From assembly GCA_002709565.1 (NCBI GenBank), contig PAPY01000030.1, forward strand, positions 50,844 through 114,843: a stretch of 64,000 nucleotides of DNA, written 5' to 3'. Source of the DNA: Legionellales bacterium. Its GTDB lineage: Bacteria > Pseudomonadota > Gammaproteobacteria > UBA1113. Made by a program: the position numbers. Shown one piece after another: positions 45,001-48,000 of this stretch (the stretch's first letter is position 1; the number at the start of each line of letters is the position of its first letter).

Positions 45001-48000
45001 TTTAATTTCACACAAGCTGACAATACCATCATCACGAGCTATTAATAGATCAATCTGAGCCCCATTGTCATTACTTCCCGCTATCGGGCTGTACTGCCAG
45101 TGCCCCATTTGGCAATGGATGTCCATGAGATTAAGGGCTTGGCGAATTTTATGGATATGCTTCTGGCAAATGCTCTCAAAGGTATAACCCGACCAGCTGC
45201 GCCACTGCGGCGACTTCGCTGCTAAATGCCAATAGTTGGCTTTTGTATCCCTCACAGACTGTTCCTTGTAAGGCTCCACCCAGTTCAAATAAAAATACGT
45301 ATACTCATCAATTACGCGGTAGTATTGATCACGCTTACTACGGCCATAGGGTAAGTACTTTTGGATAAAACCTGCCGCTTCTAACTCTGACAGTCGCTTG
45401 GTGAAAGTGCCGCCTGTTTTTTTACCCAACCGTTGACTCAGTGTCTGAATCGATAAGCCATAGCGAGCTTTAGCAATCTCACGAACAATATTTAAATTAA
45501 GTTCTGCATTCTCAAACAGCGAGGCAAATAAACGATTAAACTCATCATACAATAAACCATCCTGCTTAAAGCACATGTCATTGATATTCTGGACTGCCGA
45601 TTTGGATTTTTTAATTTGTTTCAAATAATGTGGGATACCACCCGTTATCATATATGTGTCAAGTATCTGTTTATGGCTGAGCTTAATCTGTCGGGCAGCC
45701 AAAAATTCTTTTGTTTGCGACAAATCATAAGGTTGCAATAATAGCGTATTGGTCAAGCGGTTATACAGGCCACCTTTTGCATTAATTAAATTGTCCAACA
45801 TCCATGACGCTGCAGAACCACAAACAATCAATTTCAAATTAGGCATGCGTGACCAACGAGTATTCCAAAAATAATCAAGATTCTGAATAAAGCGAGAACG
45901 CTTGCTCGCCAGCCACGGTAATTCATCTAAAAATATCGTTATCTTTTTGCGTGGCGACTGTTTAGCAATTTCATCCGTTAGGCGGTTAAATGCTTCACGC
46001 CAAGACGCAGGTGGTTGTAAAGCGACACCAGAATAAAACGTATCGGCAAGACTTTGAGTGTAGTTTAATAGTTGGTCCCCCATAGCACCATCTTTAATCC
46101 CAGTTAACTCAAAGTAAACACCTTTATTGGAAAAGTACTCTCGTATAAGATGGGTCTTGCCTACTCGTCTACGGCCATAGACAGCGACAAACTCGGCTTC
46201 TTTTGACTGCCAAATTTGGTCCAAAAACGCCAGTTCCAAGCGCCGCCCTATAATATTCTGTACACCCATCTTTGCCCCAACTCATAAAGTTATCGCTGAT
46301 TATAGACAATTATAATCAGCGATAACTTTTTTCGCAAGAAGTTATCGCTGATTATAATTATTTATATGCAGCGATAACTTTTTTGGGGAGGAGTTGTCGC
46401 TGATTTGCCAAGATGGTGGGCGAGCTTAGTGCTGTTCACTCACCCGATGATTTTGGCTATGTTAGGCCGGGGTTTTACATGTTTCTTCGTAACGCGCCAT
46501 GCTAGAGCGGATTTCGTGCTGTGCTTCATCAACCCCAGCCCAGCCTTCTATCTTGACCCATTTGCCCTCCTCAAGATCTTTGTAATGCTCAAAGAAATGG
46601 GAAATTGAAGTCAACAGGTAGGTTGGCACATCATCTGGAGTACGCACGTTCTTGTATTCAGGTGAGAGACTTTCAACAGGCACGGCTAAGACTTTGGCAT
46701 CTTCGCCCTTCTCATCAGTCATCTTCAACACCCCAATAGGACGAGCCTCAATAACCGCACCAGAAATCAACGGTACCGGGGTGATAACTAAGACATCCAC
46801 CGGATCGCCATCGTCAGAAAGCGTCTTGGGTATATAACCATAGTTACAAGGGTAAAACATCGCTGTCGCCATAAAACGGTCAACAATAAGCGCGCCGGTT
46901 TCTTTGTCTACTTCGTATTTCACCGGGCCACTACGAGCGGGGATCTCGATGATGACATTACAAGATTCGGGGGCACTTTTGCCAGGAGTTACTTTCTCTA
47001 AATTCATAGTATTACCTTTGTTATTGATTCGTTAACACCAACATTGCCATCATTGGACCGCAGCACAATGACCGCAATGTTCAGCCTTCATGTAGTGGGG
47101 AATTTGCCCCTCAGTTAATTCAATGGGATTTTGACACTTCTGACATTGGCCATAATTTGACACGCTCAGATCTGTCTTTAAGGCTACTCGACCGTCAAAA
47201 ACATAACAATCACCGTGATAATGCTCACCCCCACATTCTTCGAAATATTTTAAAATCCCGCCATCCAGTTGATATACTTCTTTGAAGCCCTTCTCCATCA
47301 TAATGGGCGAAGCCTTCTCGCAACGGATCCCGCCAGTACAGAACATAACTACCGGCTTGTCTTTAATGGCAGGGTCAAGCTTGTCTATCGCCTCATCAAA
47401 AGCGCTGAATTCCTGAATATCCAAATCAACCGCACCATCAAAGGTACCGAATTTGATTTCATAATCATTGCGAGTATCGAGAATAAACATATCCTTACCC
47501 TCGTCGTACCATTGCTTCAAGGTTGCAGCGGAAATATGAGGCCCGGTGAATTTGCCAGGATTAACTTCTGGTCTACCGGTAGTGATGGCTTCTTTCTTCA
47601 CCCGAACGCGCAGACGGCGAAAAGGAATACGGTCAGAATAGCTTTGTTTGAATACGATACCCGCAAAATTAGGGTCCGTCTCAAGGAATGCCCGATAGGC
47701 ATCCGTAGCCTCGCGACTGCCTGCAAGTAGATGATTAGAGCCCTCTGGCGTCAATAATACCGTGCCCATGAGGCCCAAAGCCTTGCATTTGTCCTTGAAT
47801 AGGCGCTGATAGTCCTGGAGGTTATCCAGTTCGGCGAATTTATAGCCGGAAATGTTAACAATGTCATTCATAGCTGCAAACCATAAGTGTTGTTAAAGAG
47901 GGACGCATTATCACGGAGATATGGCTAAAAAGCAAGCGCCGGCACGGTTAAATGCCCTCCCACCCCGGTCTGCAACGTCGCCTGGGTGCTGAAGCTGATG

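Follow-up and report, generated by a model that had tools for sequence, protein, structure and literature searches.

The subject of this analysis is an array of palindromes in a 64-kb stretch of contig PAPY01000030.1 from a Legionellales bacterium (the whole stretch is called the window below). The array lies between ppa, which encodes inorganic pyrophosphatase, and a gene for a 486-amino-acid ATPase-nuclease, and as argued below it is likely to be the promoter-operator of the latter. An earlier note on this DNA had called both genes, and the calls were confirmed by the Pfam domain Pyrophosphatase in the one and the domains ATPase_2 and DUF234 in the other. The same note had correctly located the repeats between these genes, in an interval that it gave as 130 bp; the intergenic gap measures 192 bp, of which the array fills about 120 bp. 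The features of the region are as follows.

44659-44776, minus strand: possible decayed downstream copy of the palindrome (low confidence), with TATAATCAG at 44659-44667 and GTTAGTGCTGATTA at 44763-44776
44809-46269, minus strand: ATPase-nuclease gene, 486 amino acids, Pfam ATPase_2 and DUF234, member of PADLOC PDC-S27
46287-46304, minus strand: half-site 1 (HS1), nearest to the gene, -35 to -18 from the ATG; plus strand AAGTTATCGCTGATTATA, coding strand TATAATCAGCGATAACTT
46309-46314, minus strand: predicted -10 hexamer TATAAT (consensus scan; 10 of 12 matches together with the -35 hexamer, 17-nt spacer)
46311-46328, minus strand: HS2; plus strand TATAATCAGCGATAACTT, coding strand AAGTTATCGCTGATTATA; its TATA starts the predicted -10 box
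46332-46337, minus strand: predicted -35 hexamer TTGCGA, in the 10-nt gap that forms the centre of the HS3/HS2 unit
46339-46356, minus strand: HS3, same as HS1; coding strand TATAATCAGCGATAACTT
46363-46380, minus strand: HS4, two mismatches; plus strand TATATGCAGCGATAACTT, coding strand AAGTTATCGCTGCATATA
46391-46408, minus strand: HS5, degenerate distal half-site, 13/18 match; plus strand GAGTTGTCGCTGATTTGC, coding strand GCAAATCAGCGACAACTC
46462-47007, minus strand: ppa, inorganic pyrophosphatase (Pfam Pyrophosphatase, 1e-59), the upstream neighbour, outside the element

The array (46287-46408) is composed of five 18-nt half-sites (TATAATCAGCGATAACTT) in strictly alternating orientation, with a start-to-start period of exactly 52 bp. 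HS1 and HS2, together with one flanking base per side, form a perfect inverted repeat with 19-nt arms and a 6-nt loop. This is the first palindrome described in the earlier note, at the place given there, although its size is 44 bp and not 42 bp with 18-nt arms. HS3 and HS4 form a second palindrome with 18-nt arms and two mismatches, and its perfect 12-nt core agrees with the 12-bp perfect arms reported for this copy. The degenerate half-site that had also been reported is HS5, which aligns with half-sites in L007 and L010 (L-numbers are labels of the loci that were compared). The A-run said to precede the repeats is likewise present, as each AAGTTATC arm on the coding strand has further As before it, giving an A6 run. 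Allowing up to three mismatches, the 18-mer matched four times in the window, all within the array, compared to 0.09 expected by chance, and none of 100 shuffles reached four matches. A looser search of the window with a 12-mer yielded, beyond the array, just scattered two-mismatch matches. Outside the array, the 9-mer TATAATCAG occurs only once in the window, at 44659-44667, and GTTAGTGCTGATTA at 44763-44776 matches the half-site core at 12 of 14 positions. Both are located within the 188-nt spacer 3' of the ATPase stop codon, their spacing is non-canonical, and they may be what is left of a downstream palindrome that has decayed. Of note, two independent metagenome contigs (L005 and L006) both begin 43 nt upstream of the ATG of the ATPase gene, inside the proximal palindrome; the repeat seems to break short-read assemblies.

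The array overlaps with a predicted promoter. On the coding strand, the consensus scan returned a sigma-70-like promoter, TTGCGA-17-TATAAT, the -10 box of which begins with the TATA of HS2, and HS1 would fall in the 5' untranslated region of the predicted transcript. The same arrangement is seen at other loci. TTGACA is aligned with the -35 hexamer of the window in L007, L009 and L012, and the full TTGACA-17-TATAAT occurs in L007 and L012. The palindrome centre matches five of the six bases of TTGACA in L013 (TAGACA), L019 (TTGACT), L020 (TTTACA) and L026 (TTGATA). The weight of the putative promoter assignment lies in this recurrence across loci of sigma-70-type hosts, and not in the single scan. 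The outer TATA is kept in Bacteroidota too, whose promoter elements differ, which makes it probable that the binder also recognizes this TATA.

The predicted product of the gene downstream of the array belongs to a family of candidate defense proteins. The Pfam matches were to ATPase_2 (PF01637; 2e-15, 57.7 bits, with a cut-off of 33.2) and DUF234 (PF03008; 4.8e-06, 27.3 bits, with a cut-off of 22.5), and residues 4-486 aligned with positions 2-473 of the 474 positions of the PADLOC PDC-S27 profile PDLC04984 (E 1.7e-171). In an alignment of 30 homologs, the Walker A motif GRRRVGKT and residues D407, E421 and K423 were invariant. The AlphaFold2 model (predicted local distance difference test score 89.9, predicted template modeling score 0.88) contains an AAA+ module, a winged helix and an α/β nuclease domain. 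The predicted boundaries are about 1-250 for the ORC/Cdc6-like AAA+ module, about 255-320 for the winged helix, with residues 287-298 as recognition helix, and about 325-486 for the PD-ExK nuclease/DUF234 domain. Foldseek ranked the ATPase_2 protein 2QEN first, followed by the archaeal Orc1/Cdc6 structures 1W5T and 2QBY, the latter bound to origin DNA; further matches were eukaryotic ORC, MalT (8BOB) and STAND NTPases. The ATPase is thus predicted from the model to carry a sequence-specific DNA-binding domain, the winged helix. PDC-S27 has been described as a single-gene candidate defense system in which an ATPase is fused to a PD-(D/E)XK nuclease, and it is among the most prevalent candidates; in one survey of 40,000 bacterial and 7747 archaeal genomes, 4562 and 3503 such genes were counted, respectively (PMC12988326). 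DUF234 has been classed as a PD-(D/E)XK family (PMC3424549). The single published test that was found, of one PDC-S27 in E. coli challenged with T7, T5 and T4, did not place it among the systems that protected (bioRxiv 10.1101/2024.09.26.614923), and PDC-S27 is thus a candidate only. Every contig that carries the identical protein shows the same neighborhood, and the source is a marine 'Legionellales bacterium' metagenome lineage.

Conservation of the element with the ATPase gene

We compared 85 homolog loci (36-65% identity), 80 of which came from a profile search with one genome per species (36-57% identity). They belong to Chlamydiota, Legionellales (Legionella), Rickettsiales, Bacteroidota, Verrucomicrobiota, Planctomycetota, Myxococcota, Spirochaetota (Treponema) and Clostridia. 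For each gene, the 250 nt of upstream sequence were scored by their best inverted repeat, as matches minus two times the mismatches, with a loop of up to 24 nt, and palindromes with a score of 12 or more were called strong. The scores were as follows.

250 nt upstream of the gene (85 loci): median score 14, 69% scoring 12 or more
Dinucleotide shuffles of the upstream regions: median score 7, 0% scoring 12 or more
1586 other 250-nt windows of the same loci: median score 6, 1.6% scoring 12 or more
Region after the gene: median score 7, 6% scoring 12 or more

The equivalent element was found at a fixed position relative to the gene start in the homolog loci. The four closest homologs (59-65% identity) are located in unrelated contexts, adjoining a tyrosine phosphatase gene, an S49 peptidase gene, gyrB and a TonB-dependent receptor gene, respectively. 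Immediately upstream of each, two to three palindromes of this type stand in tandem, and a region of roughly 110 nt aligns, including the degenerate distal half-site. The half-site itself varies by locus, mostly on both arms; it reads TTATCGCTG in the window, TTAGCGCTG / CAGCGCTAA in L009 and ATATCGCCG / GGCGATAT in L012. Paralogs of one genome also differ in their half-sites, as is the case for L036 and L066 and for the two genes of L007, of which the second PDC-S27 paralog has quite different palindromes (ATACTCAGCCAAAA). The L007 paralogs are convergent, and two copies of an inverted repeat with 34-nt arms (5533-5628 and 5858-5953) are located between them.

Despite this variation, many half-sites fit one frame, TATA-N4-GC(C/G)-N7, for example TATAATCAGCGATAACTT, TATATTTCGCCAAAACT and TATAAGTGGCGGATAAAT. 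The core TATA-N4-GC(C/G) occurred 115 times in the upstream regions, compared to 6.3 times in dinucleotide shuffles (maximum 14), and its density was 5.3 per kb upstream versus 0.19 per kb in the rest of the loci; at least one copy was present in 42 of the 85 loci. The half-sites, two to eight per locus, alternate in orientation. In an outward-facing pair, 45-47 nt separate the two outer TATAs, and the next pair follows after 7-8 nt. Half-sites of the same orientation were mostly spaced 50-56 nt apart (42 of 50 cases); the mode, 53-54, is about five helical turns.

Copies on mobile elements were inspected as well. An upstream inverted repeat scoring 11 or more was found in six of seven plasmid copies. 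Viral contigs gave seven loci, a number too small to serve as a separate statistical replicate, and these were used as spot checks only. TATA-type palindromes were also seen in spot checks outside the 85-locus set, for a copy on a Paracaedimonas plasmid and another in Wolbachia phage WO. In the plasmid of Candidatus Paracaedimonas acanthamoebae (L173) the homolog lies between transposase genes, and in phage WO (L174, L181 and L182) it adjoins head-tail connector genes; the identity for these four loci is 46-56%. Two PDC-S27 homologs have further defense genes nearby: in the plasmid pNP144 of Butyrivibrio hungatei (L193), cas12a is situated about 500 nt downstream of the homolog, and in L080 a DUF3375 gene is located directly 3' of it. 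The best matches overall were from Chlamydiota, Legionellales and Rickettsiales, a distribution which suggests exchange of the gene among intracellular bacteria. Archaeal relatives (24-26% identity) gave a mixed picture; the M. jannaschii homolog has an AT-rich palindrome upstream and the Natronomonas homolog none, and we do not claim the element for the archaeal branch. Judged from these sequence comparisons, the palindromes are part of a conserved, putative promoter-plus-binding-site cassette that travels with the ATPase gene across phyla.

Since the half-sites differ between loci, their divergence could be compared with that of the protein, and this was done for 42 loci with half-sites in register. 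Half-site divergence tracked the divergence of helices H2-H3 when the rest of the protein was controlled for (partial Mantel r 0.24, p 0.0005), and the nuclease domain added nothing once the winged helix was controlled for (p 0.27). When all protein columns were paired with all variable half-site positions (5052 residue-by-base pairs), the pair of residue 288 and half-site base 8 had by far the highest mutual information, 1.44 bits, with 0.88 for the next pair. Residue 288 opens the recognition helix and follows an invariant Gly-Gly. Threonine at this position went together with A at base 8 in 14 of 14 cases, arginine with G in 7 of 7, and tyrosine with C in 3 of 3. The switch between threonine and arginine took place inside the subclade of the window (L012 versus L001, L007, L009 and L010) and again in Bacteroidota (L034 versus L035). 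The rule held in new loci with a clear register: R with G in L173, Y with C in L174, L181 and L182, T with A in L186, and I/V with C in L188. These data are strong hints that the site and the predicted binding domain co-evolve.

Interpretation of the array

The computations show how the array is built, that it is conserved in the family and travels with the gene, that it overlaps a promoter consensus and bears no signature of RNA structure, that the protein model has a winged helix, and that a residue of the recognition helix covaries with a half-site base. That the protein binds the array, in which direction it regulates, whether it acts cooperatively and with ATP, and whether phage defense is involved are inferences. 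The earlier note had listed operator sites among its options, and this is the option that we favor, because of the family-wide conservation, the promoter overlap and the covariation with the recognition helix. It seems likely that the array is the own promoter-operator of the ATPase gene, autoregulated by the ATPase itself, and we consider it somewhat more likely still that the ATPase binds the sites, in whatever role. In this model, the winged helix of the gene product would bind each 18-bp half-site (TATA-N4-GC(C/G)-N7). Two inverted half-sites would bracket the -35 box, and the TATA of the downstream half-site would double as -10 box. Occupancy would therefore exclude or trap RNA polymerase, resulting in negative autoregulation of a potentially toxic nuclease. 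With units that repeat every 52-54 bp, about five helical turns, the bound proteins would be lined up along the same side of the helix, which could allow cooperative and plausibly ATP-dependent assembly.

Several observations weigh against this model. The evidence for an operator is all comparative, and the promoter consensus scan found about as many sites in shuffled sequences as in the window. By the score criterion, about 30% of the homolog loci have no strong palindrome, and the haloarchaeal Natronomonas homolog has no upstream palindrome. The partial Mantel correlations are modest, and the covariation statistics ignore the kinship of the loci. In addition, a second copy of the palindrome is located right after the stop codon in 9-11 of the approximately 65 loci with a strong upstream palindrome, about 15%, and a simple promoter operator does not require such copies. 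They were found in L020, L045, L048, L056, L062, L065, L067, L071 and L082, at about +1415 to +1700 from the gene start, and single downstream half-sites are present in L022 and L080. In L067 and L082, the downstream arms are identical to those of the upstream copy and the loops have diverged. The downstream copy in L062 carries a compensatory change on both arms, which could reflect selection for self-complementarity as such.

The downstream copies might be promoters of a conserved partner gene, yet the genes that follow them are unrelated housekeeping genes (encoding an aminotransferase, an M16 peptidase, a fatty-acid hydroxylase, a GH57 enzyme and others), and this candidate was therefore rejected. 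When upstream and downstream copies are compared, some loci have their loops in direct and some in inverted orientation, which is uninformative because spacers between inverted repeats can flip. Possible roles of the downstream copies are looping, insulation or a roadblock, remnants of tandem duplication, and cassette ends. The latter would fit with a reading in which the palindromes bind the ATPase, yet serve mainly as ORB-like (origin recognition box) assembly or docking sites, or as boundaries of a mobile cassette, with regulation as a by-product. The copies beside unrelated housekeeping genes agree with this, as do the 235-nt direct repeat that flanks the gene in L056, the occurrence of the gene as a single-gene insertion in differing neighborhoods, including plasmids and Wolbachia phage WO, and the possible decayed downstream copy in the window. 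The ORC/Cdc6-like fold, and inverted sites that flank an A/T-tract, resemble the situation at archaeal origin boxes. However, most loci have no downstream copy, there are no target-site duplications at the outer edges of the palindrome-gene-palindrome loci, and the Pfam scan revealed no recombinase or transposase domain in the protein. An empty site that would delimit an insert was not recovered either: a metagenome scan with the ppa protein for ppa beside the TolC-like gene without the ATPase gene gave none, the best relatives being at most 68% identical and the source lineage not being returned. Cumulative GC skew is monotonic across 36-56 kb, without a switch in strand composition at the array, and the annotated genes from about 35 to 59 kb are all on one strand. 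A chromosomal replication origin at the array was excluded because the skew does not turn there, and this also argues against the reading at hand. Finally, given the promoter overlap, binding would affect transcription anyway. Taken together, we consider a primarily non-transcriptional role unlikely. Distinctly unlikely, too, is a specific scenario in which the palindromes are ORB-like loading sites for an ORC/Cdc6-type ATPase-nuclease and originally bracketed the gene on both sides, in a self-contained palindrome-gene-palindrome cassette with ends that serve for mobility, or as a 'home' site that keeps the nuclease inactive until it is released by foreign DNA or infection. If such loading sites do exist, PDC-S27 would be a family of sequence-programmable DNA-binding nucleases with a readable residue-to-base code.

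The remaining explanations do not involve binding by the ATPase. The palindromes could act as RNA hairpins, either as intrinsic terminator or attenuator of ppa, as proposed in the earlier note, or as structured 5' leader of the ATPase mRNA. The array is located directly 3' of the ppa stop codon and its sense-strand RNA fold is very stable (-67 kcal/mol, z -11), but every palindrome would fold this stably, and the value does not help to choose between the readings. The bases behind the stems on the coding strand are CTTGCG and TATGAG, and neither hairpin has a T-run after it that would give a U-tract; terminator-like matches are found on the plus strand only. When the upstream neighbors of the homologs were divided into co-directional and divergent ones, the median score was 13 in both groups, with 74% and 59%, respectively, scoring 12 or more. 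Since they are present whichever way the neighbor points, the palindromes are not terminators of this neighbor, and the terminator proposal was dropped. Moreover, the 206 arm mismatches comprise 50 G·T and 51 A·C pairs, a strand-symmetric pattern without tolerance for wobble pairs in the RNA of either strand. The predicted start site, near 46302, is inside the proximal palindrome, so that transcripts from this promoter would lack the upstream arm of the palindrome. No Rfam family scored above threshold, and at a permissive E-value Rfam 15 gave only sub-threshold matches to generic hairpins (miRNA precursors). Nor is it evident why an RNA should need the TATA-N4-GCC frame or the 53-54-bp phasing. 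These findings argue for an element that is recognized as double-stranded DNA, and make a function as RNA hairpin highly improbable. A different regulator, host-encoded or unlinked, would also account for the location of the palindromes, as promoter-overlapping palindromes are generic repressor sites, and binding by the ATPase is a prediction only. We regard this as very unlikely, since a single gene takes the element from phylum to phylum and no regulator goes with it, the half-sites differ between loci and between paralogs in one genome, and they covary specifically with the recognition helix of the ATPase. The last option, also raised in the earlier note, is a small dispersed repeat, such as a miniature inverted-repeat transposable element (MITE) or a repetitive extragenic palindrome (REP)-like sequence, that lies here by chance. 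It is indeed a compact palindrome in an intergenic region in which two metagenome assemblies break. However, no further copy was found in the 64-kb window or in the 21-kb locus L001, the sequence is locus-specific and always adjoins the ATPase gene, and its position relative to the gene start is fixed in the 85 homolog loci. The degenerate pattern GTTANCGCTGATTAN{8,14}TAATCAGCGNTAAC had no match in 185,579 GTDB species genomes, a collection to which the source metagenome-assembled genome (MAG) apparently does not belong. No direct repeat flanks the array of the window or the palindrome-gene-palindrome loci, hence there is no target-site duplication. A MITE-like origin is for these reasons hardly credible.

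Second ATPase gene and other features of the window

The window contains a second orphan ATPase gene, which encodes a Cdc6-like AAA_16 protein. The coordinates of this gene, and of the arrays at loci of its homologs, are listed below.

4915-6105: second orphan ATPase, Cdc6-like AAA_16 protein
L177, 2400-2470: array in homolog locus
L178, 2380-2500: array in homolog locus
L179, 2418-2502: array in homolog locus
L180, 2420-2485: array in homolog locus

Upstream of this gene, at 4796-4883, three GTTATAC-like units are followed by four GTATAAC units with a 10-bp period, in two inverted blocks. Homologs with 65-76% identity (the metagenome contig L177, Legionella pneumophila and a Verrucomicrobiota MAG) have repeated TTATAC units facing repeated GTATAA units up to the ATG, and the Polaromonas homolog has CTAAG/CTTAG units instead. 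The 5' repeats reported for this second gene are therefore present and conserved in homologs, but the 'GTTAT core' that both genes were said to share looks superficial, because the architectures differ, with units iterated every 10 bp here and palindromes in PDC-S27. What the two genes appear to have in common is a Cdc6-like ATPase with its own repeat array, and self-targeted site arrays may thus be general for orphan ORC-like ATPases in bacteria.

Elsewhere in the window, a type I secretion set is formed by an HlyD-like gene (39242-40624), a C39-ABC gene (40491-42671) and a TolC-like gene (42896-44620). The latter open reading frame (ORF), for an outer-membrane efflux protein, ends in a long low-complexity tail, with four tandem AKSKDTKTA repeats in the C-terminus (42896-43230). 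About 12 kb from this set lies an ORF of 4365 amino acids (14495-27592), and a protein of 1176 amino acids (52510-56040) contains two eukaryotic-type protein kinase domains.

Comparison with known systems

A conserved cognate site would provide the first concrete, testable molecular handle on the abundant PDC-S27 / ATPase_2-DUF234 family. The finding predicts sequence-specific DNA binding by the PDC-S27 protein, with a specificity that diverges rapidly, and it names residue 288 and base position 8 as the likely specificity-determining pair. With the putative native promoter-operator identified, this region should be deliberately kept or removed in heterologous defense assays, and this may bear on the negative test that has been reported. 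A literature search on PDC-S27, DUF234, COG1672 and PF01637 returned domain classifications and census papers only, with no mention of a cis-element. A self-operator of a mobile defense-type gene is of a well-known kind. What appears to be undescribed is the family-wide frame, the phasing of the arrays, the correspondence of residue and base, and the fact that some genes are bracketed by the element.

The window protein matches the PADLOC PDC-S27 model over its full length. Autoregulatory operators are known from defense and toxin-antitoxin modules. AbiEi is a winged-helix antitoxin that binds two inverted repeats in the abiE promoter, and the C-boxes bound by the C-proteins of restriction-modification systems, as well as the sites of BrxR/CapW-type regulators, are autoregulatory operators of such modules. 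The PDC-S27 element resembles these in that the palindromes lie over the predicted promoter of the module itself, the tandem sites are compatible with cooperativity, the site travels with the module, and the specificity diverges. Unlike these systems, the array gene has no separate regulator, and the predicted DNA-binding domain is part of a single ATPase-nuclease protein. The arrays of PDC-S27 also differ in that they comprise up to eight half-sites with a fixed period of 53-54 bp, sometimes with a copy after the gene.

Two other groups of ATPases are related in design. With archaeal Orc1/Cdc6 and the ORB sites beside orc1/cdc6, the PDC-S27 system shares the AAA+ and winged-helix architecture, and inverted sites that flank an A/T-rich center just upstream of the gene of the putative binder. 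It differs in its bacterial host, in being a single-gene insertion among housekeeping genes without a turn in GC skew, in the extra PD-ExK nuclease domain, and in sites that overlap a predicted promoter and bear no sequence relation to ORB. The DnaA boxes in the dnaA promoter and the MalT boxes are arrays of sites for ATP-dependent oligomerizing NTPases. The protein family of PDC-S27 is different, its sites are palindromic pairs, and a nuclease domain is present, yet the likeness consists in an NTPase of this type with a DNA-binding domain and an array of short sites, which in the case of DnaA includes those in its own promoter.

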